Positions 1 through 35,629 of a stretch of DNA of 41,041 nt are shown here, piece after piece. Position numbers and translations under genes: made by a program. Below the pieces are notes generated by a model. That model was given only the letters and a program-made list of their open reading frames with translations. It was not told where the DNA came from and made no database searches. Each line of letters opens with the position of its first letter. The first letter of the stretch is position 1. The DNA comes from Nemertoderma westbladi (lineage: Eukaryota > Animalia > Xenacoelomorpha), in NCBI GenBank assembly GCA_032718475.1, contig JAUCBJ010002542.1, forward strand, positions 1 through 41,041. Reading direction: 5' to 3'.

Positions 1-1
1 A

Positions 2-3000
2 TACAAGGCTCGAACCAACGATAGGAGAGAACAGGTTGCCAAGACTCCTCCTCAGTCTCCTAACAGAATGCACGGAAGAAAGACCGAAGAAAGAACGAGA
101 GTGCATCAAGTTACCCAAGGTAAAGTGAGTAACATCAAACCAAACTGTGCGCTGTGCGACGGGCCCCACCGTTTGAGTGCGTGTGCTGAATTTCTAAAGA
201 AATCCCTTGTAGACAGACGTGCAGTCATGTGGGATAAGCGGTTATGCTATAATTGCCTCAGATCAGGACACCAACGGCGAACCTGTTACTCCGACGTAAA
301 GTGTGCAAAGTGTGGCGCGAAACATCACATCTTGTTACACAGTGAGTTCGAACGAGACAACCCGAGTCAGGTAAGTGAGCCCGAACTACATGTCCAATTC
401 AGTGATGTAAATGACACTGATCAAGAGTCTGAGATGGAAGGATTCTATACTGACGAATTCTCCGACGCCAACGAATCCTGTTACCTAATAAATACCGCAG
501 TGTATCGAGCACTTACTTACGAAAAGGACACCGACAATGAGTTTCCCCCAACTACTTTTGCCAGACAACCATCTTGGAAAGCTCCAACTTCCAACGTAGG
601 AATCAGAGAATTTCCTGTAGTGCAGGTAAGAGTTCACGGTCCTAACAAAAGTTACATAGTGAACGCCCTCCTTGACTCCGGCAGCACAGGAACATTCATC
701 GATCAAGAACTAGCCGAAGATATCTTTGCTGGACAACCCAAATTCCGGACTAAATTGAATATGTCAGGAATTATGCAGGTTTGGAAATCTACCCTAACGG
801 CAGATTACTATGTAGGTGTGTTGTCCACCCCCCAGGATAAATTAGGAGCACAAGGTATAAGGTCGGTAAAAATGGTGGCTATAAAGAACTTCGCTACTAC
901 CCAAGCAGATCTTTATAATTGGGACGAGGATGAGAGCATCCAACAGCTTAAGATACCTCGATTCCAGACAGATTATCCTGGAGTGCAAATACTCATCGGC
1001 CAAAACGCGCATGAGGCGCTCGAGACATTGGAGAAACGGCCTGCTCAACCGCAGCCACTGCAAACCTATGCGGTAAGAACTAGAGTAGGTTGGTACTTTA
1101 CTGGCCCTTCCCGCAGAACTCTCGAAGAGAGAATGCCACAAGAACGAATATACCAAGTAAACGATTGGGAAGTGGAGAGCAGTGAGGTGGACGAACTAAC
1201 TGAGGGAACACCATACTCCTCAGATAATGACGACATCTACCAACTCTTCGATGAAGAGAACACAATCGACCTACTTACAGAAAACAAAACGTGGAAAAAC
1301 CAGGTGAACCTATGTCAACTGATTCGCCCATCGGGACCCATTGATTACAATGACGAACTAAATGATGAGATAGAGCGCTACAACGCTAGAACTCGGGACG
1401 AACTCGCCGTACGATTCTTTACTCAAGAATTGGTAGAGCCCAATTCATACGATAAGGCCCTATCGATAGAAGAAGAAAGAGCCAAGCAAATCCAGGAAAC
1501 AACTACCCGTTTTTTAAAAGATCAAGGTAGATATGAAATCGGCCTACCATTTCGAAAACGAGAACCTAGATTTATAAATAACAGACCCTTGGCAGAGAAA
1601 AGAATCACTCAATTACATCGACGCCTTACGGCTAACGCTTCAGCTAAAGAAATGTACCAAACTCAGTTGAAGAAATTTATTACAAAGGGATACGCGGAGC
1701 GAGTACCGGAAGGAACACCAGTAACTGAGAGAACGTATTACTTAACACATCATTACGTTCCCAAACCCGGTAAACCCCATGAAGTACGAGTCGTATTCGA
1801 TGGCTCTGCTCTATATATGGGCCAATCCCTCAATTCCGAGTTGTTACCAGGACCCAACTTACTCCAATCCTTGTTGGGAATACTTTTAAGATTAAGACAA
1901 TATTCCATCGCGTTCGCCTCCGATATAGAAGGAATGTTCTTACAAGTCAAGGCGCTGGATAGAGATAGAGACAGCCTGAGATTTCTGTGGTGGCCTGAAG
2001 GAGATCTCAACCAGAAACCGGTAGAGTACTGGATGACCATCCAGGCTTTTGGGATCATATCAAGCCCTTCCAACGCCTGCTCCGTGGTGCGGACCACTGC
2101 GAATGACAACCGAGACGCCTTCTCAAAAGAGGTGATAGACAACATCAAGCGTAATATATACATGGACGACAATTTAAGGTCCCTTCCATCAGTAGAAGAA
2201 GCCATTGATGTCGCGAAAGGAACGGTAGAGTGTTTGAAAAGAGGTGGATTTCGACTGACGAAATTCACCAGCAACTCCCGTGAGTTTCTGGAAGCGATAC
2301 CGGTAGAAGACCGAGGAACGAAAGATCTAGACTTAATAAAGGACGATCTTCCAGAAACCAAGACGCTTGGCTTGAAGTGGGACACCGAAAGAGATATCCT
2401 GTTTTTTCAGCTAAAACAGCGAGATAATCCAGTTCGGACCAAACGGATTTGTTTAAGTATCCTGAGCACTTATTTCGACCCATTGGGATTTATTAGCCCA
2501 GTTATATTGATTGCTCGGAGTTTAGTACAACAAATGTGGCTTGAAAACCACTCATGGGACGATCCACTTAAGGGAGAACTGTTAAAGAAATGGATGAAAT
2601 GGGAAGATTCTCTACCTGCCATCGAGAGCTTTGTAATTTCCCGTGCATATTTTGGTCATGTTCTTCCTACGTATTCCTATCAACTCCATGTGTTTGGAGA
2701 CGCCAGCGACATGGGAATAGGTATAGTAGCATATCTGCGAGTCGAAACTCCGGATGGAATCAAAGTCGCCTTGGTTACCTCTAAGGCATTGATTAACAAC
2801 AAGTTAAAGGTTCCTCGAGCGGAGTTAAAAGCGGCTTTATACGCTACAGCCATCGGCCGGAACGTAACAGAACAAATCGACTATCCACTGGAGAAAACTG
2901 TTTATTGGACCGACGCTTTACTCGTGTTGGAGTATATAACCAATGAAGTCTGTCAGTTCAGCGTTTTTGTTACTAACAGGGTAGCTATTATTCTTAGTCG

Positions 3001-4774
3001 CACAAAGATAGATCAATGGAGACATTGCCCTGGTACGATTAATCCAGCCGATATCGCCTCCAGGGGAGCGACTCCACAGGAACTGATAGATACTCCAGAC
3101 TGGTTGGGTGGACCCGACTTCCTGAGTAAGGAAGAGGATGAATGGCCTCCTCACCTTACTACGGCGGAGATTAGACAAGCCAAGGGAGCGGAGAAAGTCA
3201 AACCTAAAACCCGGGCGAGTAAATCGAAGTTATTTAAACCGACGATCGATCTATCTGTATTGCATACTTCCGGAAACGATGCTTCGGATCCACAATCCCT
3301 CGCCACAAATAAGTCTGTTGTGGAAATTAGAGATAGAGATTGGAAATCTGGAACACCAGACGTCTCGCAAGGAATCTCACCCCTGCTGCAGAGAGCAATG
3401 CATCACTACAGTTCCTGGAATCGGCTCTGTAAAGCCGTCACATATTTAAGGCGATGTTTTCATCATCACTACTCCAGGACGAAGACCATTAGTGATACCG
3501 CTCCATTGACATCTGCGCAAGTTCATGTTATTAAAAATTTACCCAAATATAAGACATCCGACCGGTTTCTAAAGGAAAAAATCAGTTACCAGGAGCATGA
3601 AGAAACCAATAAGCAGATACTGAGACTCCTGCAATGCTATGAGGATTCCGATAAGTATTTCCTGTTGTTGAGAAATCCGCAGATGCGCTTAAGGGATCGC
3701 TTCTCTAGCACAATGATAGATGGGTTAATACGTGTTGGAGGAAGGCTCACCAATGCGCCATTATCCTTTGACACTAAATTCCCCATACTCATTAGAAATC
3801 TTGAAGTACAAATCAAGATGATTGTAGATGTTCACAGTAAACTTTATCATGCTGGTAGAGAACGAGTTCTTAGCGAAATTCGAACTCGCTATTATTTTGA
3901 TAAACCCCGTAGAGCTCTGAACCAAGTTCTTAGGAACTGCATACCCTGTAGGAAAGCATTCAGTAGGCCTTTAACACAGCGAGAGGCAGAATTACCTAGG
4001 GAACGAGTAAGCTTCTATGAACCACCTTTTACTAATACTGGTGTAGATTTATTTGGCCCTATTGAAGTATATCGTGCTAGGACTATAGTCAAGAGATGGT
4101 GTGTCATCTTCGTATGCATGACTTGTAGAGCCATCCATCTCGATATGGTGAACGATCTATCTACCAACAGCTTCGTCTTAAGTTTACGCCGACAGATCGC
4201 TCGCTTCGGGACGAGTAATACCATGAGATCGGATAAGGGAACGAACTTCATTGGTGCCAACAACGAAATCCAGGCTTACGTGAAGGACTGGAACCAAAGA
4301 CAGGTGGACGATCAGCTAAGGATAACAGCGTCTAGCTGGACCTTCAACGCCGCCGACGCCCCTTGGTGGGGAGGAAGTTGGGAGAGATTAATTAGAAGTG
4401 TCAAGACCGCATTTCACTTTATAGTGCCATGCCGCGCGTATCTCACCGACGAACTTTTGCGGACATTAATGGAGGAAATAGCTGCCTATCTCAACGAGAG
4501 ACCGCTTATGCCAGTCTCATCGAGTCTCGATTCCCTGGAAGCGCTAACACCCGCGCACTTCCTACTGAAGAAACCTGTAGCCATGCTCCCACGATCGGAG
4601 ATTACCGACGGAGACGAATACTGCCGTCGAACTTGGCAACTTATGCAGTTGCTATCCCGTCGTTTCGCTGACCATTTCGAGAAACATTATCTGCCCACGC
4701 TACAACTTCGAACTAAGTGGTACAGAAGCAGACAGGTCGTATCATCGAGACTCCCATCTCGGATGATGGTTTAG
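2..4774 (+). CDS. pol: BEL/Pao Gag-Pol polyprotein (5'-truncated by window; C-terminus frameshifted)
   Basis: Frame is open from base 2 (first ATG at 68). Knuckles CALCDGPHRLSAC, CYNCLRSGHQRRTC and CAKCGAKHHILLH. Protease LLDSGS. RT motifs VRVVFDGS, SDIEGMFLQ and YMDD. Pao RNase H motifs HVFGDAS, PRAEL and NPADIASRG. Integrase HHCC (HSKLYH...CIPC) and DDE (GVDLFGP, RSDKGTNF, GGSWERLI). Confidence 0.96.
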   Translation, partial: YKARTNDRREQVAKTPPQSPNRMHGRKTEERTRVHQVTQGKVSNIKPNCALCDGPHRLSACAEFLKKSLVDRRAVMWDKRLCYNCLRSGHQRRTCYSDVKCAKCGAKHHILLHSEFERDNPSQVSEPELHVQFSDVNDTDQESEMEGFYTDEFSDANESCYLINTAVYRALTYEKDTDNEFPPTTFARQPSWKAPTSNVGIREFPVVQVRVHGPNKSYIVNALLDSGSTGTFIDQELAEDIFAGQPKFRTKLNMSGIMQVWKSTLTADYYVGVLSTPQDKLGAQGIRSVKMVAIKNFATTQADLYNWDEDESIQQLKIPRFQTDYPGVQILIGQNAHEALETLEKRPAQPQPLQTYAVRTRVGWYFTGPSRRTLEERMPQERIYQVNDWEVESSEVDELTEGTPYSSDNDDIYQLFDEENTIDLLTENKTWKNQVNLCQLIRPSGPIDYNDELNDEIERYNARTRDELAVRFFTQELVEPNSYDKALSIEEERAKQIQETTTRFLKDQGRYEIGLPFRKREPRFINNRPLAEKRITQLHRRLTANASAKEMYQTQLKKFITKGYAERVPEGTPVTERTYYLTHHYVPKPGKPHEVRVVFDGSALYMGQSLNSELLPGPNLLQSLLGILLRLRQYSIAFASDIEGMFLQVKALDRDRDSLRFLWWPEGDLNQKPVEYWMTIQAFGIISSPSNACSVVRTTANDNRDAFSKEVIDNIKRNIYMDDNLRSLPSVEEAIDVAKGTVECLKRGGFRLTKFTSNSREFLEAIPVEDRGTKDLDLIKDDLPETKTLGLKWDTERDILFFQLKQRDNPVRTKRICLSILSTYFDPLGFISPVILIARSLVQQMWLENHSWDDPLKGELLKKWMKWEDSLPAIESFVISRAYFGHVLPTYSYQLHVFGDASDMGIGIVAYLRVETPDGIKVALVTSKALINNKLKVPRAELKAALYATAIGRNVTEQIDYPLEKTVYWTDALLVLEYITNEVCQFSVFVTNRVAIILSRTKIDQWRHCPGTINPADIASRGATPQELIDTPDWLGGPDFLSKEEDEWPPHLTTAEIRQAKGAEKVKPKTRASKSKLFKPTIDLSVLHTSGNDASDPQSLATNKSVVEIRDRDWKSGTPDVSQGISPLLQRAMHHYSSWNRLCKAVTYLRRCFHHHYSRTKTISDTAPLTSAQVHVIKNLPKYKTSDRFLKEKISYQEHEETNKQILRLLQCYEDSDKYFLLLRNPQMRLRDRFSSTMIDGLIRVGGRLTNAPLSFDTKFPILIRNLEVQIKMIVDVHSKLYHAGRERVLSEIRTRYYFDKPRRALNQVLRNCIPCRKAFSRPLTQREAELPRERVSFYEPPFTNTGVDLFGPIEVYRARTIVKRWCVIFVCMTCRAIHLDMVNDLSTNSFVLSLRRQIARFGTSNTMRSDKGTNFIGANNEIQAYVKDWNQRQVDDQLRITASSWTFNAADAPWWGGSWERLIRSVKTAFHFIVPCRAYLTDELLRTLMEEIAAYLNERPLMPVSSSLDSLEALTPAHFLLKKPVAMLPRSEITDGDEYCRRTWQLMQLLSRRFADHFEKHYLPTLQLRTKWYRSRQVVSSRLPSRMMV

Positions 4775-4977
4775 TGCGCTCGGTAGAACTCGTCGTCATG
4801 CGGCGTAACTTCAAGAAGCCAGGCATAATCTTTGAGACGCAACAACTCAACCGCCCAGTTGGTCGTTTATGTTTACTGGAAAGAGACAGAGAACTCTCCG
4901 GAAACTATGGAAGGCAAGACACTCTTCCCACGACCACCTCCCTAATTCCTCAAACATCTAGGGACTCCCCAATGTGA
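4734..4977 (+). pseudogene. Out-of-frame C-terminal remnant of the BEL integrase tail (DUF5641-like)
   Basis: GRIIETPISDDGLVRSVELVV...RPVGRLCLLE is the usual end of BEL Pol. It lies in a different frame from the upstream LQLRTKW, and the usual intervening GD-V-L...W-LG segment is absent, which indicates a frameshifting deletion near 4730. Confidence 0.85.
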
Positions 4978-5491
4978 TACGTCTGGAGTGGGTGCATGAC
5001 TATATTATTCTATCTATTTTTATTATATTTTTATATGCGAACATTATTATGTACTTTATTATAATCGTTTTTATTCAATTTTATTTAGTAGAAGGTTATT
5101 TTAGATTATTTGGTAGATTAGTGCAATATATTAGTGTTTATTACGTAATTACATATATATAATATATATTTAGTGTGACGGCGAGAAATAATTTTTTCTC
5201 TTTCCTTACTGTCCGTATCATATTATAAATACGTGACTACAGTAAGATGAAATGTCCGTACTTATTAAAGTACAATAAAGCCACTACTATATTTAAGTAT
5301 TATTGGTAGGCAGAGTATTAGGAATGCAAAGTTCAGATCCTCGTGTCTCGGCTAAACCAAGCTCTGGGTAGACCTTGGAAACGACTTGCCTCTTCACACT
5401 GACATTGCTTCGTGCGATATTGCTCTTCTACCTTATATTAAATAATACATATAGTAGCGTGATGTCCCTCTAACAGTAGCGTAAAACGCAA

Positions 5492-5815
5492 ATAAATCTG
5501 TTAAACCTTTGACCATCTGTAATTCTAGTCGATTAAGATATCGCGGCATCCACCGATATACTTGAAAGACAAATTCTAGAATCAGTGGTTAACGTCCCCA
5601 GACAAGTTCTGGAATAAATCGGTGCCCATCTTAAATATTAATTTAATATTTATTAAAATCTGTAAAATTCAGATCCTTTAAAATTTCTAGTCAATTAAGA
5701 TATCGCAGCACTTACCGATACTCTTAAAAGACAATTTTATAGAATTAAGGATCCTAAGTCCCCAGACATGCTCTGGAATAAAAATTGTGTCAATTTTAAC
5801 ATCAAATAATAAAAT
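5492..5815. repeat. Diverged tandem duplication, ~162-bp unit, 2 copies
   Basis: ttctagtcgattaagatatcgcggcatccaccgata...gtccccagacaagttctggaataaa (from 5523) versus ttctagtcaattaagatatcgcagcacttaccgata...gtccccagacatgctctggaataaa (from 5685). Confidence 0.85.
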
Positions 5816-6418
5816 TCACGGGAATAAATTTAAATTCATATCTTGGATGAATTTCATAAATTGTCATTTTGTGCAATTTATAACATTCCCAAAATTCCAT
5901 TAATTAATAGATCATGGGAGCGGAGATTCATCCTATTGAGTGTATTAGAGTGCGAGAATCTCCAACATATAGTCAATAGCCGATAAAAATTTAATAAAAT
6001 CATGCATAGAGAGGATATTGACAATTAAAGAATTACTATTAAATAGCATTCCAGATCTGTATGCATGAGAATTACCCCAATTCTACCGCTAGCTTTCCAT
6101 AATGTCACCATAGCAACACCCACGCTAGAATTAGAAGCAAGTTAAAAGAACAATAGAAAGCTTGTCCCATTGCCTAGCATAGAGAATGCATAGCATACTG
6201 TTAGTATCCAAGGATACACAGTAATAACGTGACATTCTGGAAGGCACTGACTAACGGACAAATGGCCTGTATGTGTACAATTGGTGACAGTTGTGTGGAA
6301 TTTGTGCGTTTATAGGTGAATGTTACTGCTAAAGTATGTTTACAGTAGCTAGTCGCAATTGTGAAAGTAACCCAACTCTCCTATAGAAAGAACCTAAAGT
6401 GGATCCAAGCCTTTGGGA

Positions 6419-6561
6419 CGGACAGTGGAGTGACTTGTGCCGGTTATCGTTGTCGTGCTGTTGCTACATGTTGGCGTAAACACCGCGACGACGGTACATC
6501 GGCGCTGAGAATCCCACTGTCTGGGGGCAACGAGAGGTAGGCAGCGATGCCCGCTAGCCTA
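6419..6561 (+). other. Long imperfect RNA hairpin (6419-6523) plus small hairpin (6538-6561) upstream of ATG 6604
   Basis: Pairings read by hand: cggacagtgg/ccactgtctg, gtgccggt/atcggcgc and tatcgttgtcgtgctgtt/aacaccgcgacgacggta. Most non-Watson-Crick pairs are G.U on the + strand. Second stem is taggcagcg/cgctagccta. Confidence 0.75.
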
Positions 6562-6874
6562 AACATAAACTCATTTTGATATTAATAAACTCAGATAGCA
6601 GATATGACGGAGTTGATAGAAGATGATCTTGGTATTAGGGAGCGATATACTCTACCTTTACAAGCATTTGTGGATAGCTTAATACGCGGTGAAGCCGATC
6701 CAACCATTACGGAGGACGATGGTCGTTATATCGAACCGCCGATGTCCCAAGAGCAACTTGCGCGTGAATTGGACTATCAAAAATTCACCGCTCGCTATAT
6801 GAATCGTAATGGTACGTATATGGACTTCTTAACTACCGGCCATCCTATCGATTTACATGATACGGACGATGTAG

Positions 6875-9091
6875 ACACAGAAAGGGAAATGGTTCTATTT
6901 AAATATAAACCAAAACGATAAACCGAGAATAGAACACGAAAATTCTATTCGTAACAGACTGGAAAGAGAAAACGTTGAAGAACCGGATAAACGCATCGAC
7001 TTCAACGACTACCTGGAATTTTTTAGAGAAACTTATCTCAACATCGCCAGTCAGCAGAACCTAGAGACTCGATATCCTCAAGGTATACATCATGACCCTA
7101 TGGTAGAACTTTTAGGTCCACTACCTGTTATCCCGGATAGTTTTGAACAAATGGAAGAATATTGCAAAACTGGAGAACGATCACCCGCGTTTCCTCTACA
7201 GGACGTACGTCTTTGGTATTATTGTGACGAATGCCCTAGACCCAACCAACAAACTGAAAGACATAAACATCCGCGGAGACGTTGCACTAAACACAGCTTT
7301 ACACGTTATACTTACGGGAGTTTCGAGCGAAACCTGTTCGACGTATCACCTACGATCGCTCGTCTTAAACGATCACTGAATAAACCCATGATCAGAGTTC
7401 CGGAATACTCGGTCAGGCCTCCTCATTCCCTAGTGAGACCTCAAACTCTTGATCCTAACAGTATCACTGATCCTCCCGAACTATATTCCCTGTTCAAAGA
7501 CTTAGTGTTACCCGAACAATTAATCGGTGGTGCTCCGGTAGTGGGTTCGTTAGACATTCGCCCCTCCTACTTAGCCAGATTGGGACGCGGGCAGCTAATA
7601 TCGCCATTTGATCCTTACAATCGTCCAGGATTAAACCCGATGCAACCCGCCACGGAAGTCGAGGAGAGCGTTATAAGAAATGCTTTAGACGCTATTCGAC
7701 AGAAGATCGGAAAGGGAACACAAGATTGTTTAGAGAAACGTAAATTACGACAACAAGTCCAATCGGTGAAGGAGTTAGCCTTGCCACAGTTCGATAGAGA
7801 AATCCAAAACCTTGAGGAGGACATTGAGCTTGGACGCACGTATTCTCTACAAGAGTTTCTAGATGAACACTTACAGAGACAAGCGGAAGAAAATCTACTC
7901 GAGGAGAAACACACGAAAATGGACGAGAGAGAAGAAGCCGCTTTAGCCCAACCCGAAGCTCAAATCCTTAAGACAGATCTCTACTCTAAAACCGTCCGTC
8001 ATCCCTCGATGATTCCACATTTCGGAGACAAACTCTTCGCGACGATACAACCTCAACTGGTTGATATCAGTACAGGATCGCAAAATCTTATCGCTGACAC
8101 CCCTATGTTACAGCGTCCGCCAATCGAGGCCGCTCGTGTTGACGGTATACTCGTTGAACCTCCGGACAATCGAGCGGATCTTGTCCGTCGTATGGTACAC
8201 GATGTCAACATACGCGCTAGACCTTTACAGAACTCGTTTTATGGGATTAAAGACCACCCTTATTACGTTAATCTGACTCAATATTATATGGTAAAACCAG
8301 AAGACCCGACGCATAATTTAAAGTTTCTACCACTAATAAATCCTCTAGACATTGTCGAACTCGAACAATTGCAGAAACATCTGGATCAGTTAGTAAAGGT
8401 AAACTCATTTAGAAAACCATATAACATTTCTCGAATCGAGAAGGATATAGAACCTCCTTATAATCTCGATGGATTTATTAAAACTCGATTAGTCCATTGG
8501 AATCTAGATGTATTATTTGAAGAAGAGAAAATACAAAGATATGGAAATGTGGAGACGTATACCACTCGGCACATGAAGTATAGTGATCTCCCTGACGCTA
8601 ACCAATGCGCCACCTTGTGGCATCCAGTAGGGATGACCCTAGAGAACGCCACCAAGGAGTGGAATGAAACTCTTAATGTTATTGAGATGTATGGAGTTGT
8701 CACCTACGATAATGAAGGTAGCGTTCCGGTCAGAGAACTAGGAACTACGCGAATGATCCACATACGCGGATTAGCTGGTTCTACACACGTGTTTACTCGA
8801 GCGTGTTCCGACGTGATTGATTATTCCTTTGAAACTCTCACCGAAACACAAAAGAATCTCCGACATGGACAATTCGACCTCGCGCAGCGTTACGTCATTG
8901 ACACCGAACGCAAACTGGCCATGGGTATCGATGGATCGATGTTACCCCAGCCCGTACTCGAGATGTTGTTCAACGAAAGAATCCTTAAAATCGGCTCAGC
9001 TGTTTATGGAGATCTCCAAAACGACTTTCGGAATATGGAGAACATTCCATACCCTTTCGTTGATACTCAGCTGATTGCTCCCTGGGCATAA
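6875..9091 (+). CDS. Central segment of accessory ORF (Cys/His cluster, charged helical region, N-terminal half of DEDDy exonuclease-like domain)
   Basis: 663-aa ORF from ATG 7100, open upstream to 6875. Contains CDECP...HKHPRRRCTKH, an E/K/Q-rich helical stretch, and the Exo I and Exo II motifs near its end. Confidence 0.7.
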   Translation, partial: TQKGKWFYLNINQNDKPRIEHENSIRNRLERENVEEPDKRIDFNDYLEFFRETYLNIASQQNLETRYPQGIHHDPMVELLGPLPVIPDSFEQMEEYCKTGERSPAFPLQDVRLWYYCDECPRPNQQTERHKHPRRRCTKHSFTRYTYGSFERNLFDVSPTIARLKRSLNKPMIRVPEYSVRPPHSLVRPQTLDPNSITDPPELYSLFKDLVLPEQLIGGAPVVGSLDIRPSYLARLGRGQLISPFDPYNRPGLNPMQPATEVEESVIRNALDAIRQKIGKGTQDCLEKRKLRQQVQSVKELALPQFDREIQNLEEDIELGRTYSLQEFLDEHLQRQAEENLLEEKHTKMDEREEAALAQPEAQILKTDLYSKTVRHPSMIPHFGDKLFATIQPQLVDISTGSQNLIADTPMLQRPPIEAARVDGILVEPPDNRADLVRRMVHDVNIRARPLQNSFYGIKDHPYYVNLTQYYMVKPEDPTHNLKFLPLINPLDIVELEQLQKHLDQLVKVNSFRKPYNISRIEKDIEPPYNLDGFIKTRLVHWNLDVLFEEEKIQRYGNVETYTTRHMKYSDLPDANQCATLWHPVGMTLENATKEWNETLNVIEMYGVVTYDNEGSVPVRELGTTRMIHIRGLAGSTHVFTRACSDVIDYSFETLTETQKNLRHGQFDLAQRYVIDTERKLAMGIDGSMLPQPVLEMLFNERILKIGSAVYGDLQNDFRNMENIPYPFVDTQLIAPWA

Positions 9092-10810
9092 GGTCGAGGT
9101 TTCTTCCGCACCAGGTATGCTAATACGTCTAGCAACATTACAAAGGTGCAACGAACTTCCATCGGACATCTTGCCTTTCAGGAATACGGATGGAATTTCA
9201 AAGTCGGAAATCCCATCAACTATCAACAAGTATACGGAGACCATTATTCTCGATTATACTTTGATGGACCATTGACCGCACCTGGCGCCGTGTATAGCTT
9301 CATGAGTGTTCCACTCCGTCCCTCCTTAGCTATCTACACGATCTTTGAAAACACCGCACTTTCCGGTTGGCTAGCCGATGTGTGCAGTTGTACTATATGC
9401 GCCCATCCATTAATACTTGGGACCAAACTCGCTAAGCTAGTTGAACATAATAAATTCATCCGCTTCGAATGTTTCCGGCGATTTTTAACCCTGTTCCGCA
9501 ACGTGGATAGCCAATTTAAAGACCGCGCTTTGACCAAGCTCAGCCTAAGAAACTCAGCTGCAGAGAAGTTAGATAGCGCTGGATTTGCCATTTTCAAGGA
9601 GATTTGTATGTCGAACTTACACTCCTCTGTTATACAAAGACCTCGAATCCCCACAGGTTATTCTGTCGTGGAAATTCAGACAATAGGTCCACTTGAAGAG
9701 ACAGACACGCCCACCTCAGCTATGCACTGGGAAGACGAACCAATATGCCTAGAATCTGAGGAGATTCAGCCTATCGCCCCCCGGAACAGCGACAACGATT
9801 ACATCCTAGAATGGTATCAAGGTCCACAGTGTCTCACTGCGTACGATTATCGACATGCCAACTATGTTTCTCGGCAACGTTGTCGGTTATGCGCATCGAG
9901 AGACCATGTTACGCCCATGGACACAAACGTCCGCTGTTCCTATTTCCAAGAACAACCGACGATGGAAATTTATTGCGCATATTGCAGACTCAATAACTTG
10001 CATATTTTTGCGGTTTGCCCTCAATTTATGACTCAATGTCACCATTGTCAACTAAAGGGACACGCCAGTTTCGATTGCCCTTTTAATCACGATTTGGAAA
10101 GCGTAGATGAAATGATCACACTACGTTACATCAGAGCTTGGGAAGCGAACGCCGATTTACATTGTGATTCGCGCCATCGCTATTATCCCGGACGCGCTTA
10201 CGAAGGAGTTTATGCGTTCCATCCTAATCTATTCGCTTCTGTCGAACAGAAATCACGCATATCGAGTTACGAACTACTGAAGCACGTCGGAGAATGTATT
10301 TCAACCAAATTCGTACGCAAATTTCTCAGGAGTGTTAATCCTAGCGACCTTCATTCCTATAACTTAATCAATTATATCCGTCAGGATCCGGACTATGGAG
10401 ACTTATTTGTTAACTCACACCCCGAGTTACAGGAAGTATATCGACGGCCTTACGAATACCGAGCCCGCGAACGCGAGTTGGAAAGAACCATTAAACCCAG
10501 GAGGTTTCTGACTGCCTATGGTCCACCCACGGCTCTCGTTCAGACCACTCGTAAAGGACCCGTAAGAGCGGCTGTCCTAAAACGCGCTCTCAAGGCCGTT
10601 AGACCCCTCTCCCCCGACGTTGATGTCAATCAACCCGGCACTTCGACTGGCGGATACACCGACCATAATCCTACACCCTCTGATGCAATCACATTGCACC
10701 CTTCACCCAGGAGTTATAGCCCTCCTTGTAAAGTGGCTCGCCCCAAAGAGAAAAGGACTCTGGCCAGCTTTAAAAAACTGCGTAAACGCCGTCCGCGCAA
10801 GAAAGACTAA
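9092..10810 (+). CDS. C-terminal segment of accessory ORF (Exo III region, zinc knuckles, NLS-like tail)
   Basis: In frame with the upstream ORF across one TAA (APWA*GRGFFRTRY...). Contains an exact CX2CX4HX4C knuckle, CHHCQLKGHASFDC. Confidence 0.7.
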   Translation, partial: GRGFFRTRYANTSSNITKVQRTSIGHLAFQEYGWNFKVGNPINYQQVYGDHYSRLYFDGPLTAPGAVYSFMSVPLRPSLAIYTIFENTALSGWLADVCSCTICAHPLILGTKLAKLVEHNKFIRFECFRRFLTLFRNVDSQFKDRALTKLSLRNSAAEKLDSAGFAIFKEICMSNLHSSVIQRPRIPTGYSVVEIQTIGPLEETDTPTSAMHWEDEPICLESEEIQPIAPRNSDNDYILEWYQGPQCLTAYDYRHANYVSRQRCRLCASRDHVTPMDTNVRCSYFQEQPTMEIYCAYCRLNNLHIFAVCPQFMTQCHHCQLKGHASFDCPFNHDLESVDEMITLRYIRAWEANADLHCDSRHRYYPGRAYEGVYAFHPNLFASVEQKSRISSYELLKHVGECISTKFVRKFLRSVNPSDLHSYNLINYIRQDPDYGDLFVNSHPELQEVYRRPYEYRARERELERTIKPRRFLTAYGPPTALVQTTRKGPVRAAVLKRALKAVRPLSPDVDVNQPGTSTGGYTDHNPTPSDAITLHPSPRSYSPPCKVARPKEKRTLASFKKLRKRRPRKKD

Positions 10811-10880
10811 CTGTTTAGAGTATTTACGTATATTAGAAACTGTGATTTTTGTATATTTATAGACTTGAATCCCATTTTCT

Positions 10881-11520
10881 GGGAGCGGTGTAAAAGCTTT
10901 TGCGGATATAATCAGTCCCCCTGCCCGCAAAGTACCGTTGTAGGTGTTTTAACGGACATAAAAGTCATTCTTCTATATGTGTGCTTTGGCGGACATGGTA
11001 AGGCACAAAACCCGCAATGCGTCAAATTCTCTAGCACAGTGTAGCCTTGATGATTCAGATTACGACATCTAACAGCTGGTTGCTGGCATGGAAACGGCCG
11101 TTGGACACATGGTTCTTTGTTTCAGCTTAACAGCCAATCAGAGCGATTTTTACTGTCGATGTGGAGATATTCTACAGATCGTGCTAGCAGGATTCAGTCT
11201 TATAGTTTTCTGTGTTATAGTTTTGTTGTTTCTATCTAGGCCAAGAACACCGGCTCTAGAGTCAATTCGTTTCAGACTTTAGAAGAAACATTAGTAGGCT
11301 TAGATTATAGAGCATATAACTGTTACCGGCCCAATTATCAGCGCAGTAGCGCAGCGGTACAATCTTATATTGTTATAATCTTAACCTACCGTCTTAATGC
11401 TTTTTACTGTTGTTATTGTTTCTATCTAGTTGGTTGAATATTATTATTTGGAGAACATCTATAAAGAACCCAAATTTCCCAATTTTCTTGATACACTACA
11501 GGTTAGAGAGACAGGTTACA
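10881..11520 (+). repeat. Candidate polypurine tract (10881-10888) and 3' LTR (10889 to ~11520)
   Basis: GGGAGCGG then TGTAAAAG. AGCCAATCAGAGCG CCAAT box at ~11132, CATATAA at ~11313 and TATAAA at 11460. Ends in TTACA at 11520, giving a 5-bp terminal inverted repeat. An alternative end is CTACA at 11500. Confidence 0.55.
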
Positions 11521-12095
11521 TATAGCGATTGCGACTTATATTATCGTGGTTTGTAGTGAGTTTAATGCTATTTGATAGGCACTACATGAGTCAATTGCTG
11601 TTCTCTTTATATATGATAAAATTCATTGACGGTCGGCAGATTAGTGTGCAGTATTGTGTGGTACCGGTAGTGTGCATGATTGTGGCTGCTAACTAAGCAT
11701 TTCCTAAAGAATGCGCCTCATACGTGAATCATAAGCCTTACAGTCTTACAGTTGTGTTTAGTATAAGTCATATCTCTGTTTATCTAGATAGAGCGTCACG
11801 TCCTAAAGGAACTGTTAATATTTCCCGAAAGTGAATAATACTCGTCAGAAATTATTTATTAACGATCAATCGAATAATACAGTAAGCTTACACTGCAATA
11901 ATAAAATCTAAGCCCCATCCGAATCCAGTCTCCCGGGTATATCCAGCGGGTGAATGGACGCGCACTAGGCTGGCTTCGGCTAATGTTGTGTTTATTGGTA
12001 TTAAATACTTGTCATTTACTAAAGTCTATTTATAAACCAAAAGACATATAAATTTTGGCAGGTTAAACTGCTAAAGGTCTTCAAAAGCGCGTACA

Positions 12096-15000
12096 GTGTC
12101 CCTGATTAATGTTTGTGTCCCTGATTAATGTTTGTGTCCCTGATTAATGTTTGTGTTCCTCATTAATGTTTGTGTCACTGATTTATGTTTGTGTCCCTGA
12201 TTAATGTTTGTGTTCCTCATTAATGTTTGTGTCACTGATTTATGTTTGTGTCGCTGATTAATGTTTGTGTCCCTGATATATGTTTGTGTCCCTGATTAAT
12301 ATTTGTGTCCCTGATTTGTGTTTGTGTCGCTGATTAATGTTTGTGTCCCTGATTAATGTTTGTGTTCCACATTAATGTTTGTGTCACTGATTTATGTTTG
12401 TGTCCCTGATTTATGTTTGTGTCCCTGATTTATGTTTGTGTCCCTCATTAATGTTTGTGTTCCTGATTAATGTGTGTCCCCCATTAATGTTTATGTCCTT
12501 GAGTAATGTTTATGTTCCTCATTAATGTTTGTGTCCCTGATTAATGTTTATGTCACTGATTAATGTTTGTGTTCCACATTAATGTTTGTGTCACTGATTT
12601 ATGTTTGTGTCCCTGATTAATGTTTGTGTTCCTCATTAATGTTTGTGTCACTGATTTATGTTTGTGTCGCTGATTAATGTTTGTGTCCCTGATATATGTT
12701 TGTGTCCCTGATTAATATTTGTGTCCCTGATTTGTGTTTGTGTCGCTGATTAATGTTTGTGTCCCTGATTAATGTTTGTGTTCCACATTAATGTTTGTGT
12801 CACTGATTTATGTTTGTGTCCCTGATTTATGTTTGTGTCCCTGATTTATGTTTGTGTCCCTCATTAATGTTTGTGTTCCTGATTAATGTGTGTCCCCCAT
12901 TAATGTTTATGTCCTTGAGTAATGTTTATGTTCCTCATTAATGTTTGTGTCCCTGATTAATGTTTATGTCACTGATTAATGTTTGTGTCACTGATTAATG
13001 TTTGTGTCCCTGATTAATGTTTGTGTTCCACATTAATGTTTGTGTCACTGATTTATGTTTGTGTCCCTGATTTATGTTTGTGTCCCTCATTAATGTTTGT
13101 GTTCCTGACTAATGTTTGTGTTCCTGATTAATGTGTGTCCCCCATTAATGTTTATGTCCTTGAGTAATGTTTATGTTCCTCATTAATGTTTGTGTCCCTG
13201 ATTAATGTTTATGTCACTGATTAATGTTTGTGTCACTGATTAATGTTTATGTCACTGATTAATGTTTGTGTCACTGATTAATGTTTGTGTCCCTGATTAA
13301 TGTTTGTGTCCCTGATTAATGTTTGTGTCCCTGATTAATGTTTGTGTTCCTCATTAATGTTTGTGTCACTGATTTATGTTTGTGTCCATGATTAATGTTT
13401 GTGTTCCTCATTAATGTTTGTGTCACTGATTTATGTTTGTGTCGCTGATTAATGTTTGTGTCCCTGATTTATGTTTGTGTCCCTGATTAATATTTGTGTC
13501 CCTGATTTGTGTTTGTGTCGCTGATTAATGTTTGTGTCCCATATTTATGTTTGTGTCGCTGATTAATGTTTGTGTCCCTGATTTATGTTTGTGTCCCTGA
13601 TTAATGTTTGTGTCCCTGATTTATGTTTGTGTCGCTGATTAATGTTTGTGTCCCTGATTTATGTTTGTGTCGCTGATTAATGTTTGTGTCCCTGATTAAT
13701 GTTTGTGTCCCTGCTTAATGTTTGTGTCCCTGATTAATGTTTGTGTCCCTGATTTATTTTTGTGTCGCTGATTAATGTTTGTGGCCCTGATTTATGTTTG
13801 TGTCCCTGATTAATGTTTGTGTCCCTGATTTATGTTTGTGTCCCTGATTAATGTTTGTGTCCCTGATTAATGTTTGTGACCCTGACTAATGTTTGTGTCC
13901 CTGATTTATGTTTGTGTCCCTGATTAATGTTTGTGTCCCTGATTTATGTTTGTGTCGCTGATTAATGTGTGTGTCCCTGATTTATGTTTGTGTCCCTGAT
14001 TAATGTTTGTGTCCCTGATTAATGTTTGTGACCCTGACTAATGTTTGTGTCCCTGATTTATGTTTGTGTCCCTGATTAATGTTTGTGTCCCTGATTTATG
14101 TTTGTGTCGCTGATTAATGTTTGTGTCCCTGATTAATGTTTGTGTCCCTGATTAATGTTTGTGACCCTGACTAATGTTTGTGTTCCTGATTAATTTTTAT
14201 GTCACTGATTAATGTGTGTCCCTGATTAATGTTTGTGTCCCTGATTAATTATTGTAAACCTGATTAATGTGTGTCCCTGATTAATGTTTGTGTCCCTCAT
14301 TAATGTTTGTGTTCCTGACTAATGTTTGTGTCCCTGACTAATGTTTGTGTTCCTGATTAATTTTTATGTCACTGATTAATGTGTGTCCCTGATTAATGTT
14401 TGTGTTCCTGATTAATGTTTGTGTCCCTGATTAATGTTTGTGTCCCTGATTAATGTTTGTGTCCCTGATTAATGTTTGTGTCCCTGATTAATGTTTGTGT
14501 TCCACATTAATGTTTGTGTCACTGATTAATGTTTGTGTCCCTGATTAATGTTTGTGTCCCTGATTAATGTTTGTGTCCCTGATTAATGTTTGTGTCCCTG
14601 ATTAATGTTTGTGTCCCTGATTAATGTTTGTGTCCCTGATTAATGTTTGTGTTCCACATTAATGTTTGTGTCACTGATTTATGTTTGTGTCCCTGATTTA
14701 TGTTTGTGTCCCTGATTTATGTTTGTGTCCCTCATTAATGTTTGTGTTCCTGACTAATGTTTGTGTTCCTGATTAATGTGTGTCCCCCATTAATGTTTAT
14801 GTCCTTGAGTAATGTTTATGTTCCTCATTAATGTTTGTGTCCCTGATTAATGTTTATGTCACTGATTAATGTTTGTGTCACTGATTAATGTTTGTGTCCC
14901 TGATTAATGTTTGTGTCCCTGATTAATGTTTGTGTCCCTGATTAATGTTTGTGTTCCTCATTAATGTTTGTGTCACTGATTTATGTTTGTGTCCCTGATT

Positions 15001-17595
15001 AATGTTTGTGTTCCTCATTAATGTTTGTGTCACTGATTTATGTTTGTGTCGCTGATTAATGTTTGTGTCCCTGATTTATGTTTGTGTCCCTGATTAATAT
15101 TTGTGTCCCTGATTTGTGTTTGTGTCGCTGATTAATGTTTGTGTCCCATATTTATGTTTGTGTCGCTGATTAATGTTTGTGTCCCTGATTTATGTTTGTG
15201 TCCCTGATTAATGTTTGTGTCCCTGATTTATGTTTGTGTCGCTGATTAATGTTTGTGTCCCTGATTTATGTTTGTGTCGCTGATTAATGTTTGTGTCCCT
15301 GATTAATGTTTGTGTCCCTGCTTAATGTTTGTGTCCCTGATTAATGTTTGTGTCCCTGATTTATGTTTGTGTCGCTGATTTATGTTTGTGGCCCTGATTT
15401 ATGTTTGTGTCCCTGATTAATGTTTGTGTCCCTGATTTATGTTTGTGTCGCTGATTAATGTTTGTATCCCTGATTTATGTTTGTGTCGCTGATTAATGTT
15501 TGTGTCCCTGATTTATGTTTGTGTCCCTGATTAATGTTTGTGTCCCTGATTTATGTTTGTGTCGCTGATTAATGTTTGTGACCCTGACTAATGTTTGTGT
15601 CCCTGATTTATGTTTGTGTCCCTGATTAATGTTTGTGTCCCTGATTTATGTTTGTGTCGCTGATTAATGTTTGTGTCCCTGATTAATGTTTGTGTCCCTG
15701 ATTAATGTTTGTGACCCTGACTAATGTTTGTGTCGCTGATTAATGTTTGTGACCCTGATTAATGTTTGTGTCCCTGATTTATGTTTGTGTCCCTGATTAA
15801 TGTTTGTGTCGCTGATTAATGTTTGTGTCCCTGATTTATGTTTGTGTCGCTGATTAATGTTTGTGTCCCTGATTAATGTTTGTGTACCTGATTAATGTTT
15901 GTGTCCCTGATTAATGTTTGTGTCACTGATTAATGTTTGTGTCCCTGATTTATGTTTGTGTCGCTGATTAATGTTTGTATCCCTGATTTATGTTTGTGTC
16001 GCTGATTAATGTTTGTGTCCCTGATTTATGTTTGTGTCCCTGATTTATGTTTGTGTCGCTGATTAATGTTTGTGGCCCTGATTTATGTTTGTGTCCCTGA
16101 TTAATGTTTGTGTCCCTGATTTATGTTTGTGTCGCTGATTAATGTTTGTGTCCCTGATTAATGTTTGTGTACCTGATTAATGTTTGTGTCACTAATTTAT
16201 GTTTGTGTCCCTGATTAATGTTTGTGTCCCTGATTAATGTTTGTGACCCTGACTAATGTTTGTGTCCCTGATTTATGTTTGTGTCCCTGATTAATGTTTG
16301 TGTCCCTGATTTATGTTTGTGTCGCTGATTAATGTGTGTGTCCCTGATTTATGTTTGTGTCCCTGATTAATGTTTGTGTCCCTGATTAATGTTTGTGACC
16401 CTGACTAATGTTTGTGTCCCTGATTTATGTTTGTGTCCCTGATTAATGTTTGTGTCCCTGATTTATGTTTGTGTCGCTGATTGATGTTTGTGACCCTGAC
16501 TAATGTTTGTGTCCCTGATTTATGTTTGTGTCCCTGATTAATGTTTGTGTCCCTGATTTATGTTTGTGTCGCTGATTAATGTTTGTGTCCCTGATTAATG
16601 TTTGTGTCCCTGATTAATGTTTGTGACCCTGACTAATGTTTGTGTCGCTGATTAATGTTTGTGACCCTGATTAATGTTTGTGTCCCTGATTTATGTTTGT
16701 GTCCCTGATTAATGTTTGTGTCGCTGATTAATGTTTGTGTCCCTGATTTATGTTTGTGTCGCTGATTAATGTTTGTGTCCCTGATTAATGTTTGTGTACC
16801 TGATTAATGTTTGTGTCCCTGATTAATGTTTGTGTCACTGATTAATGTTTGTGTCCCTGATTTATGTTTGTGTCGCTGATTAATGTTTGTATCCCTGATT
16901 TATGTTTGTGTCGCTGATTAATGTTTGTGTCCCTGATTTATGTTTGTGTCCCTGATTAATGTTTGTGTCCCTGATTTATGTTTGTGTCGCTGATTAATGT
17001 TTGTGTCCCTGATTAATGTTTGTGTACCTGATTAATGTTTGTGTCACTGATTTATGTTTGTGTCCCTGATTAATGTTTGTGTCCCTGATTTATGTTTCTA
17101 TCCCTGATTAATGTTTGTGTCCCTGATTAATGTTTATGTCACTGATTAATGTTTGTGTCACTGATTAATGTTTATGTCACTGATTAATGTTTGTGTCGCT
17201 GATTAATGTTTGTGTCCCTGATTAATGTTTGTGTCCATGATTAATGTTTGTGTCCCTGATTAATGTTTGTGTACCTGATTAATGTTTGTGTCCCTGATTA
17301 ATGTTTATGTCACTGATTAATGTTTGTGTCACTGATTAATGTTTGTGTCACTGATTAATGTTTGTGTCCCTGATTAATATTTGTGTCCCTGATTTATGTT
17401 TGTGTCGCTGATTAATGTTTGTGTTCCTGATTAATGTTTGTGTCCCTGATTAATGTTTGTGTTCCACATTAATGTTTGTGTCCCTGATTAATATTTGTGT
17501 CCCTGATTTATGTTTGTGTCGCTGATTAATGTTTGTCTCCCATGTTTATGTTTGAGTCCCTTATTGATCGGTGTCCCTGATTAATGTTTGTGTCC
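12096..17595. repeat. Satellite/minisatellite, 19-bp unit GTGTCCCTGATTAATGTTT, ~290 copies, with higher-order repeats
   Basis: Directly visible tandem array with recurring variants (TGATTTAT, GTCGC, GTCAC, TTCCTCAT). Confidence 0.99.
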
Positions 17596-17772: not shown

Positions 17773-18300
17773 CTATGGCGCAGTAGCAGTAAAGAATGCG
17801 CTACTCCAATCAACTTGCCCATCTGCTCCGAGAGGATTATTCTCCCAATTAGTATCACAGGCTCCATCGCAGCATTGCAACTGGCAGGCCACCTGGGGAT
17901 CTTCTAACATACTCTTTAAAGCATTTGCAGCACTCGCCATAGCGTTTGCAACCTCTGTATCATCATCTTCACCAGCACATTCAGCCTCAGATATTGATTT
18001 ACACTGACCGTTCAACACATCTGTCACACACATAACAAACCCCACATTCATGAGTATGTTGGCATCTACTTCCTTCATCTTCCCCCCTACTAGAGTCGAC
18101 ATTGTCATGCACTTCGCGCAATCTTCTGCAGTTACCTTCGGTACTGCATCAAAAAGCAATTTAACCGCCTCATCTTGAATTTGGGAATTGTCAGATTTTA
18201 TTACAAAAGTTAAACCTTCTTCACAAGTTGCGCCTTCACAAACTGAGTTAACGAAAATATCACAAAGACATACCACGATTAATAACTTGAGGTTATCCAT
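17773..18300 (-). CDS. Small secreted cysteine-rich protein (175 aa), possibly a divergent Ly6/three-finger-like fold
   Basis: ATG in aagaATGG context. Hydrophobic signal peptide LLIVVCLCDIFVNSVCEG. Spaced cysteines ending CQLQCCDGACDTN. Single exon. The fold assignment is a guess. Confidence 0.7.
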   Translation of the reverse strand: MDNLKLLIVVCLCDIFVNSVCEGATCEEGLTFVIKSDNSQIQDEAVKLLFDAVPKVTAEDCAKCMTMSTLVGGKMKEVDANILMNVGFVMCVTDVLNGQCKSISEAECAGEDDDTEVANAMASAANALKSMLEDPQVACQLQCCDGACDTNWENNPLGADGQVDWSSAFFTATAP

Positions 18301-22554: not shown

Positions 22555-23275
<721 letters not shown>

Positions 23276-25415: not shown

Positions 25416-25550
25416 AATAGGAAATATAGGCTATCTTTTTGGAGTTATTTTCTGAGTATTTGGAGTCTTTTTGGAGTTATTATAGTTGTTTTCTCATTTA
25501 ATCACCAGGGCAGAAATATAACTCTAAAAAGATAGCCTATATTTCCTATT
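25416..25550. mobile_element. 135-bp MITE/foldback with ~39-bp terminal inverted repeats
   Basis: aataggaaatataggctatctttttggagttattttctg versus cagaaatataactctaaaaagatagcctatatttcctatt (1 mismatch, 1 indel). Confidence 0.8.
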
Positions 25551-25679
25551 TACGATGAATGCCCTAAAATCGGCTTGCCGCGGACTGAATGTTTTCCCTT
25601 ATTTCAAGACATCCTTGCTATTGCCTAGCCTAACTGGGATATATACAGTCCAACTACCAGCTCACCACTACTCATTAGG

Positions 25680-25725
25680 CAGCAATGTAATGAGCCAGAC
25701 TACAGCAATGTAATGAGCCAGACTA
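25680..25725. repeat. Perfect 23-bp tandem duplication
   Basis: cagcaatgtaatgagccagacta x2. Confidence 0.95.
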
Positions 25726-25770
25726 ATAAGAGAGCTTAACCTTGCTTATTGTGTTTGGCTGAGTATTTAA

Positions 25771-26861
25771 CACGTTAGCTGCGGATTGAGCACCGGTGCA
25801 CAATTCGTGTTTTAACTTTACTGCGGCAGGTTTTACTCCCTGACAACTTCTTACTGCGGATTGAGCACCGGTGAACATGACCTGTACAACCCTGTAGTCC
25901 GGACCTATTTTGGCTTGACTAACCCTTAGTGCGGAGGCTATAAGTTGAGCACCGGTGCTCAAATACATCAGCTGTTGTCATATTCGGTATCTGTGACCTT
26001 TGTATGACTCATATATATATTTTTTTTTGGGTTTGTGCACCGGTGCACAATCCGCACTACACAAGTGCCAGTGCGGATTGAGCGCCGGTGCTCAATATTT
26101 TCACTTATATAAATATGGCGGGATTTTTAAAAATGCTCTACTGTAGCATTAGCATTTCTGCTATTAGGCCTATTTGATTTAGTTTACTCATTATTAGTTC
26201 AGCAATAACTGTCTTGTTTACTTTTCATGTATTAATTTATATTACATGATCAAATGTGCTGTAACAATAACAATGTTATTTGATATTGTTTTACTTTATA
26301 AATGTTTTAAACCCAAAATAATTTATGGTGGTTGGGGGGGGGGGGGGGGGTGGGGGGGTCGTTAAACTGCAAACATTATCTACTATGGGGTTACCCCCTG
26401 AGATTTCGAAAGTGGCCAAAAGTAATAGTGATGTTTAATAAGTTTACTAATGTGATGGGATAATTATTGGTACAGTTTTGGAAATTGTTAACCCTGTAAG
26501 AGTAAAATCATAAAAATATATAAAATTTCGATGAAATTCAAACCACTATCTCTGGCCTGGAAGGAGCTATTGAGATGCGGTTTTTTCTATGGTGGTTCTC
26601 CATTGTCTTATAAATACAATGATTGTGAATTTGAGCACCGGTGCCCAAAGGAATTCCCACAAAATGTAATTAACAAAAAGTAATTTGTTGAGCACCGGCG
26701 CACAATCTGCAGTTGAGGAACTGCACAGGAATGTTCACCGGTGCACAATCCGCACTAACTAAACGCCAAGCTTCAAATCTTGCCGCAGTCATGGAACAGC
26801 AGATCCGGTGCACAATCCGCAGTAACAAAGAACCAGTGGTTTCGGAGCCGCTGCTAACGTG
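25771..26861. mobile_element. Non-autonomous piggyBac-type DNA transposon (1,091 bp)
   Basis: TTAA on both sides (25767-25770 and 26862-26865). TIRs CACGTTAGCTGCGG / CCGCTGCTAACGTG (13/14 match). Nine subterminal near-palindromic TTGAGCACCGGTGCACAA-type motifs. No transposase ORF. Confidence 0.88.
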
Positions 26862-31887: not shown

Positions 31888-32229
31888 CTGAAAAATAATG
31901 TAATTTTTCTCTATTATTAATAATGTAATTATAATTAATTATCTTTAACCGAAAATTAATGGAAACATTATCACTATTTACTCAAACATAATAATTTTAA
32001 TAATATTATTAGAACACACAACACAGTAACACAAATTCAGTTTTGTAAAGTGCCCTTACGGGTATTAGTGATATATTTTTTTTAGTAACTCGAACGTAAT
32101 TATCTAGGTTTACTTTCATACTTTTTATTATTTTATATTTCATTTATGTTCCATTAAGCCATAATATTAATATAATTATTATATTAATCAATATAACGAA
32201 ATATATTTTATTTTTAAATAGTTTCTTAT

Positions 32230-33310: not shown

Positions 33311-33729
33311 CTCCCCCCCATGCTATCTTCCCGGTGAGAAGATAGCATCAACCTCAAGTGCGTTTCAATTCCGCTGGAACCCGATCTACTATCGGGTGTA
33401 GGGTGGAGTTCTTTTCTCGGAGTCGGCTTTCCAGGCCGCTCCCTCTGGGTATGATATTGCTACCCCTTCTTGGTGCAATCGCAACCTATGTTGCACCAAG
33501 ACATCTGACGTCTCTTTTCGAGACAATTGTGGACTCCTCTCACACAATTTTAAAAACCCTCACCCTGATACTCACTCTAACCTCACTCTACTCTATCTCT
33601 TATGGACCCTATCGTCCCTTGCTCTCTCTCTTACTGCTCGCTCTCCACATTTCAATTGCACTCCTCTCACTTCCTTACGCGCCAACACCTCCTTTCCATA
33701 CTTCCCTCGTACTCCTCTCATACTCCTCT

Positions 33730-35622: not shown

Positions 35623-35629
35623 TTTTTAG

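Follow-up and report, generated by a model that had tools for sequence, protein, structure and literature searches.

A third gene between pol and the 3′ long terminal repeat of a BEL/Pao element

We analyzed a stretch of 41,041 nucleotides from Nemertoderma westbladi (assembly GCA_032718475.1, contig JAUCBJ010002542.1, positions 1 to 41,041 of the forward strand; the window), the left end of which is occupied by a BEL/Pao retrotransposon with long terminal repeats (LTRs). In this element, the gag-pol frame is followed by a noncoding spacer, a third gene, a polypurine tract (PPT), and the 3′ LTR (Table 1). The product of the third gene very probably includes a 3′-5′ exonuclease domain of the DEDDy type, and this gene is the main subject of our analysis.

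The gag-pol frame matched PF05380 (Pfam scan, E value = 3.4e-36) and the integrase H2C2 family PF17921 (E value = 3.9e-7), with a weak match to an Asp protease and another to DUF5641 (E value = 0.011). Its translation showed three Gag Cys/His motifs, protease, reverse transcriptase (RT), RNase H, and integrase, in this order; the RT motif YMDD is present, and the triple Cys/His motif of Gag, a feature of BEL/Pao elements (Belpaoviridae), lies at residues 49 to 113. No match to a dUTPase was found in pol by the Pfam scan. The predicted domain content of pol and the order of protease, RT, RNase H, then integrase allow the element to be assigned to BEL/Pao, in agreement with a preliminary description of this DNA.

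The third gene measures about 4.2 kb, or about 1,400 codons, between the spacer and the PPT. It had been described as one frame of about 1,400 codons, which proved incorrect: a change of frame at 6875 to 6921 separates the 5′ piece from the rest, and the pieces at 6875 to 9091 and 9092 to 10810 share a frame that is split by an in-frame TAA (9089 to 9091) and must be read through. In one public sequencing run (X2), 25 contigs depart from the window copy at 6906, within the frame change. Together with a break in the tail of pol, these make the window copy a decayed one with three breaks.

The N-terminal 559 residues matched no Pfam family and scored just 0.75 in the Atlas comparison, and about 660 N-terminal residues of the whole third-gene protein find no explanation in either. 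Toward the C terminus lie three Cys/His knuckles. The preliminary description had called all three CCHC type; their number stood, but only the third has the canonical spacing (CX2CX4HX4C), the second (CX2CX5HX4C) and the first (CX2CX4HX9C) being variants. The knuckles matched zf-CCHC_3 below its cut-off (E value = 0.08) and aligned with those of a homologue, P0004 (see below), at a score as high as which none of 1,000 shuffles came. The basic tail was found as described and may act as a nuclear localization signal (NLS). No hydrophobic segment was found in the third-gene product (maximum 19-residue hydropathy, 1.27 and 0.46), which appears from its sequence not to be env-like, having neither a predicted signal peptide nor a transmembrane anchor.

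The spacer contains a diverged direct repeat of 96 nt (5523 to 5618 and 5685 to 5782), and AG dinucleotides directly upstream of the ATG at 6604 could serve as a splice acceptor. On the other side of the third gene, the PPT-like CTGGGAGCGG directly precedes the TG at 10889, as had been reported. Three contigs of another run (X5) match exactly from 10889 and are preceded by 556, 982, and 1,368 unrelated letters. Because all three leave there for unrelated DNA, 10889 is a true repeat boundary, and the junctions show the pattern expected of 5′ or solo LTRs in differing flanks. The LTR had been placed at 10889 to 11520; its start was thus confirmed, but its end was not, since cover over 10740 to 12130 extends beyond 11520 to the 12056-12102 bin in 4/4 runs. 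The letters ...GTACA end at 12095 and give way to a 19-nt satellite. By cover and satellite start, 12095 is probably the end of the LTR; a junction to a primer-binding site (PBS) was not among the 24 listed of 251 loose ends. The satellite array, whose 19-nt unit is also deep in public sequencing runs, is the probable insertion site of this copy. If the 5′ LTR has the length of the 3′ LTR, the whole element exceeds 13.3 kb.

Table 1. Positions of the BEL/Pao element, its third gene, and the adjoining satellite in the window
Feature	Position	Strand	Basis and remarks
BEL/Pao gag-pol frame	2..4774	+	Pfam matches and translation; 5′ end beyond the window
Broken integrase tail, rest of DUF5641	4735..4977	+	Frame other than that of pol, stop at 4975-4977; three-frame view
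AT-rich noncoding spacer, ~1.6 kb	4978..6603		High-copy cover, indels frequent
5′ piece of third gene, 105 aa	6604..6921	+	Frame other than that of the rest; presumably the same gene
Middle piece of third gene	6875..9091	+	About 560 residues without a family, then start of nuclease; ends in TAA 9089-9091
Cys/His cluster CX2C...H.H....C..H, possible zinc site	7223..7294	+	Sequence only
Predicted DEDDy-type 3′-5′ exonuclease domain	8660..9400	+	Read with X at the stop; profiles, alignment, guided model
3′ piece of third gene	9092..10810	+	End of nuclease, then an acidic linker, the knuckles, and the basic tail
Three Cys/His knuckles, the third canonical CCHC, the others variant	9881..10078	+	Sequence and alignment to P0004
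Basic C-terminal tail, putatively NLS-like	10772..10807	+	Sequence
Polypurine-tract-like CTGGGAGCGG	10879..10888	+	Adjoins the LTR; sequence
3′ LTR, 1,207 nt, TGTA...TACA	10889..12095	+	Start demonstrated, end probable
19-nt satellite array, 290 copies, 88% matches	12096..17595		Adjoins the LTR

The third gene in a high-copy family

Six public runs of four studies contain the stretch or part of it, with no RNA run among those listed, and four runs (three samples) were mapped on positions 1 to 12050. Cover was found in 30/30 bins in 4/4 runs, with 87,143 contigs matched in one run at all identity levels; the summed contig depth does not equal copy number. Pol, spacer, third gene, and LTR form one very high-copy family. 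Because the high-copy cover spans all four, a single-copy host gene is excluded, and the claims that the third gene is part of the element and lies between pol and the 3′ LTR were borne out, the latter also by the boundary at 10889. Joints in the DNA runs revealed family copies with deletions of 1233 to 3009 (RT), 3198 to 4840 (integrase), 6631 to 6841 (part of the third-gene start), and 6966 to 9731 (the entire nuclease region).

Two points weigh against the arrangement as we read it. We found no contig spanning both pol and the third gene, and therefore their linkage in other copies rests on the unbroken cover; moreover, the 5′ LTR lies unseen beyond the window, as do the PBS and the target-site duplication. 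A BEL/Pao LTR could instead begin near 4990, behind pol, with the third gene belonging, like the LTR at 10889, to another element. The missing contig would fit this arrangement, as would a purine-rich run followed by TG at about 4983 to 4993, a TATAAA at 5224, and an AATAAA at 5274. However, cover continues without a break from pol to 12050 in 4/4 runs, 0/24 listed of 2,896 loose ends mark foreign DNA upstream of ~4990, and the listed loose ends in the spacer resemble variants of the window by eye. The sole demonstrated foreign junction is the one at 10889, and the list of open reading frames (ORFs) holds no further gag or pol within 4978 to 10889. We consider a second element improbable.

We compared the 64 longest of about 159,000 pieces of the family; since these were chosen by the tool and are not independent, P values are indicative. 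The third gene was covered by 18 pieces with 461 substitutions and 0 gaps in 4,184 bases (~11% divergence). Noncoding pieces had gaps in 17/33 cases (57 gap letters in 4,001 bases; Fisher test against the third gene, P value = 1e-4), and pol pieces had gaps in 2/13. Among the 12 indels listed of 66, 11 fell in the noncoding 24%, one in the third gene, and none in pol. Substitutions private to the window copy changed the residue in 10/10 cases in the third gene, and those that some of the family share were mostly silent (third gene, 3/4; pol, 13/17). These classes come from 33 of 40 substitutions listed, the seven outside the two main frames having been dropped, and are too few and too selected for a ratio of nonsynonymous to synonymous rates (dN/dS). 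The pattern fits a third gene that is constrained in the family and decaying in the window copy.

A predicted DEDDy exonuclease domain

When 1.84 billion proteins were scanned in full with HMMER, the window protein had a single match, P0004 (648 aa, ENA, on a contig of 9,449 nt; E value = 7e-6), which is 31% identical to it over 150 residues. P0004 has an unbroken frame and the layout of the window protein, with exonuclease, three knuckles, and basic tail. It scored 11.9 bits against PF01612 (curated cut-off, 23.6). As a lead only, its best Atlas neighbors were clusters of PF01612, of which the top one has CCHC knuckles (0.86), and 3/3 of its listed Atlas matches with a family were PF01612. 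Likeness to P0004 that had been seen by eye behind the knuckles and before the nuclease was rejected, with 992/1000 and 243/1000 shuffles, respectively, scoring as high. A tree joined the window protein and P0004 (99/98) on long branches; it contained no animal references and is uninformative on origin.

The peptide motifs quoted in the preliminary description were all found, at 8696 to 9304. One of them, PLT....VYSFM, had been taken for ExoIII, which is instead the helix IYTIFEN. The putative active-site codons are those for Asp 8708 and Glu 8714 (ExoI), Lys 8987 and Asp 9011 (ExoII), and Tyr 9335 and Glu 9347 (ExoIII). In an alignment of 22 rows, the sole invariant or near-invariant columns were D17, E19, K110, D118, and Y226, all five of which the window protein has. 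The Asp of ExoIII, present in the 20 reference rows, is replaced by Glu in the window protein and in P0004, and the translated motif variant reads D-E-D-E with Tyr. At about 30% identity, the two proteins still share D-x-E, D, Y, and the acidity of the last residue, which suggests selection on a metal site.

For a reference profile, we took 25 PF01612 matches from 11 bacterial genomes chosen by an unrelated 17-mer and used the 16 that scored best. This profile matched residues 685 to 735 of the window protein (10.2 bits, E value = 2.5e-5 for one comparison), a score that 0/1000 shuffles reached (313 scored, maximum 4.9), and it did not match pol. In a profile-profile comparison, the window protein and P0004 together matched the bacterial set with a probability of 92.9% (E value = 3.8e-7, 50 columns, 0/150 column shuffles), and the window sequence alone did so with 58.7%. 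Among 18,950 NCBIfam models, RNase D fitted the window protein best (E value = 0.012, far below the cut-off).

Structure prediction guided by the alignment gave a predicted local distance difference test score (pLDDT) of 61 and a predicted template modeling score (pTM) of 0.63. The top matches of this guided model were DnaQ-like nucleases only, with Z scores of 12.4 for diDNase, 11.2 for RNase D, 11.2 for Nibbler, 10.8 for WRN, 10.8 for Klenow, and 9.4 for the RNase D of Trypanosoma brucei (TbRND). In Foldseek, the best E value was 2.3e-3, for RNase D and EXD2, with none under 1e-3; a separate match, to pithovirus 3′-5′ exonucleases, had an E value of 2e-4.

Several results weigh against a DEDDy nuclease. 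Single-sequence searches with the window protein gave no Pfam exonuclease match even at an E value of 1 and no PDB sequence match, and neither this protein nor P0004 reached the curated cut-offs of Pfam or NCBIfam. The significant matches span just ~50 residues around ExoII; for ExoI and ExoIII, the basis is the multiple alignment. Structure prediction failed when no guide alignment was supplied (pLDDT, 31.5), and because 20/22 rows of the guide are known DEDDy domains, the guided model indicates compatibility and is not independent proof. The Glu in place of the ExoIII Asp may weaken or abolish activity. PDB profile searches were weak: RNase D came last of 12 matches in one (E value = 2), EXD2 was the sole match of another (E value = 1.2), and a further one gave nothing relevant. 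For Rrp6 and RNase D proper, in which an HRDC domain lies behind the nuclease, no HRDC match was found by Pfam, but the nuclease itself also escapes Pfam. In a profile search of 301 genomes, 3/4 checked of five matches were DEDDy proteins; this test is a dependent one, as the profile contained P0005. The proposed assignment to DEDDy/PF01612 was thus upheld by an independent profile and by five motif columns, but it reached no curated cut-off, and the fold was seen only in a guided model that is circular. Weighing both sides, we regard a DEDDy nuclease located between pol and the 3′ LTR as very likely. None of the three outcomes that the preliminary description had named as refuting came up, the 5′ LTR lying beyond the window.

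Searches for further relatives yielded nothing new by word index (limited length ranges, with about 8,000 candidates scored in two of them), and none was found in viral contigs scanned with the domain, pol, an alignment (A4), and P0004 or in the genome contigs and plasmids scanned. A phage scan gave 11 records, of which the 10 listed at an E value of 0.8 were taken as chance. A separate locus (L001, 6575 to 10884) holds part of a fungal-type transposon in which a canonical DEDDy domain (PF01612, E value = 3.6e-8) accompanies DUF6729; an hhalign match of our domain to it was discounted, L001 having been picked by the same motif.

Possible roles of the third gene

Our leading, still tentative proposal is that the third gene encodes a predicted DEDDy 3′-5′ exoribonuclease with knuckles that likely trims or destroys host silencing RNAs in trans. 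The nuclease is probably catalytically active in the family; counter-silencing as its job is put forward with more caution. The gene would be expressed from its own, probably spliced, message, as is usual for ORF3s. The knuckles would hold single-stranded RNA, the D-E-D-E/Y site would bind two metals and remove nucleotides at the 3′ end, and the basic tail would bring the protein into the nucleus, with antisense small RNAs or their precursors as substrates. We favor counter-silencing on three grounds: BEL/Pao elements in general can replicate without the gene, it stands apart from Gag-Pol, and it falls into the fold group of MUT-7/Nibbler and EXD1. Nibbler has a small-RNA role. Such roles are also described for mut-7 and EXD1 (PMC5408684, in part), and in TbRND, a CCHC domain provides RNA binding and raises the cleavage of small guide RNAs (PMC7797062, in part).

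The case for counter-silencing is weakened on two counts: no result speaks directly to the substrate, and the DEDDy ORF3s of rotifers show no clear relation to copy number, their elements still being covered by small RNAs (PMC5408684, in part). It is rather doubtful that we are dealing with a BEL/Pao lineage that has its own small-RNA-destroying DEDE-y nuclease subfamily, which would bear knuckles, remove the piRNAs or siRNAs directed against the element, and have been gained independently of the rotifer and gypsy cases. A nuclease that destroys small RNAs, if true, would explain the very high copy number and would be an enzymatic counter-defense gene of an animal transposon.

During replication of the element, the same protein might trim 3′ ends of the genomic RNA, the primer, or cDNA intermediates. 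Processing of this kind has been proposed for rotifer ORF3s (PMC5408684, in part) and, in Dada DNA transposons, for their DEDDy domain (PMC3706591, in part). In its favor, DNA-acting enzymes are among the best structural neighbors of the guided model (diDNase and WRN), and a likeness to retroviral nucleocapsid is seen in the knuckles of P0004 (E value = 1e-4). However, a gene separate from Gag-Pol requires an additional step for packaging, and described BEL/Pao elements replicate without such a gene (PMC8742986). Element processing is an unlikely main role.

We judge it similarly unlikely that the protein is a noncatalytic RNA-binding module like EXD1 or Egalitarian, acting in nuclear export or transport of element RNA. 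The Glu at the ExoIII position in both sequences would fit such an adaptor, as would the basic tail, the knuckles, and the unexplained N-terminal part of 560 residues, and Cer1 has a nuclear accessory protein, CERV, for the export of its genomic RNA (PMC10309623, in part). The retention of D-x-E, D, Y, and the acidic last residue between proteins about 30% identical argues against it. The weakest of the functional ideas, and a very improbable one, is that the exonuclease proofreads for RT: family A polymerases have a proofreading domain that belongs to the DEDDy family, as the Klenow match of the guided model illustrates, but nuclease and RT are not fused, and no unusual fidelity is visible in family pieces ~11% apart, a figure in which age and error rate are mixed. 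Destruction of host silencing RNAs is the role that we tentatively prefer, on results that do not separate it from element processing or from an RNA adaptor.

Other features of the window

A second, smaller LTR element lies at 32824 to 39189 on the minus strand, with direct repeats at 32824 to 33314 and 38724 to 39189 that are 90% identical. Its 3′ LTR is accompanied by a G-rich PPT, and its gag-like and protease-like frames are broken and BEL-like by eye. It has no Pfam support, no RT or integrase ORF, and no TGG-type PBS after the 5′ LTR; on the opposite strand runs a hydrophobic frame of 221 codons (33346 to 34011). An uninterrupted frame of 1,312 codons (28000 to 31938, minus strand) contains 19 matches to low-density lipoprotein (LDL) receptor class A and a coiled-coil-like middle; these repeats and the range of BEL/Pao (PMC8742986) point to an animal host. 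At 22616 to 23275 (plus strand) is an intronless GTPase of the Rab family (Ras, E value = 4e-59), possibly a retrocopy, which we take to be Rab6-like. At 17773 to 18300 (minus strand), one exon encodes a protein of about 175 aa that is rich in cysteine, probably secreted, and without a Pfam family, and clustered short inverted repeats at 25416 to 26789 are possibly remains of a miniature inverted-repeat transposable element (MITE).

Comparison with known systems

The Belpaoviridae are described as having gag, pol, and env-like genes, a length of 4.2 to 10 kb, and LTRs of 0.2 to 1.2 kb (PMC8742986). Our element resembles them in the order Gag, protease, RT, RNase H, integrase, in PF05380, in a PPT of about 10 nt, and in an LTR of ~1.2 kb, at the top of the range (PMC8742986; de la Chaux and Wagner, PMC3118150, in part). 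It differs in that the third gene encodes a predicted nuclease, whereas theirs is env-like, and in its length of >13.3 kb, given equal LTRs (PMC8742986). The words "nuclease" and "exonuclease" are absent from the main text of PMC3118150, as far as this source was available, and we found no description of an exonuclease gene in BEL/Pao in the open literature, a search with Repbase, GyDB, and subscription journals outside its scope.

Among cellular proteins, the PF01612 group of EXD2, WRN-exo, Nibbler/MUT-7, EXD1, and Egalitarian is alike in motif order and predicted fold, with sequence matches under every cut-off. TbRND likewise has a DEDD-type exonuclease followed by CCHC fingers and acts on small RNAs; in contrast, TbRND is cellular and mitochondrial, and the window protein has a linker of 180 residues between nuclease and knuckles, with no specific kinship apparent (PMC7797062, in part). 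Dada elements also carry a transposon-borne DEDDy domain, but there it lies within the transposase of a DNA transposon and has an intact DEDD motif (PMC3706591, in part).

The closest precedents are the Juno, Vesta, and Athena/Terminon elements of bdelloids, which carry DEDDy ORF3s with a DEED motif (Rodriguez, Kenefick, and Arkhipova 2017, PMC5408684, in part). For these ORF3s, 3′-end processing and mut-7-like silencing have already been discussed (PMC5408684, in part), and they are cited as a known case in the accessible parts of PMC6431247, PMC5718144, and PMC6338049. The preliminary description could not confirm that such an arrangement is unreported; DEDDy ORF3s are in fact in print for the Juno and Vesta LTR elements. 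In both systems, a gene of the DEDDy type takes the env position downstream of pol, lacks a transmembrane segment, and has an altered acidic motif. The carriers differ, ours being a BEL/Pao element without a dUTPase match and theirs gypsy-like and dUTPase bearing, as do the motifs (D-E-D-E here, DEED there); by description, our gene is further set apart by its ~1,400 codons, three knuckles, and long N-terminal part without a family (PMC5408684, in part). What is new is thus the BEL/Pao carrier, the size of the gene, and the D-E-D-E motif variant, the kind of gene and the hypotheses on it being already in print. If our reading is right, DEDD-type nuclease genes entered the env position in BEL/Pao too, besides gypsy-type elements, and their repeated capture would argue that LTR elements benefit generally from the nuclease. 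With a high-copy family, a frame-conserved gene, and an unbroken homologue, the activity and substrate of such ORF3s become testable.

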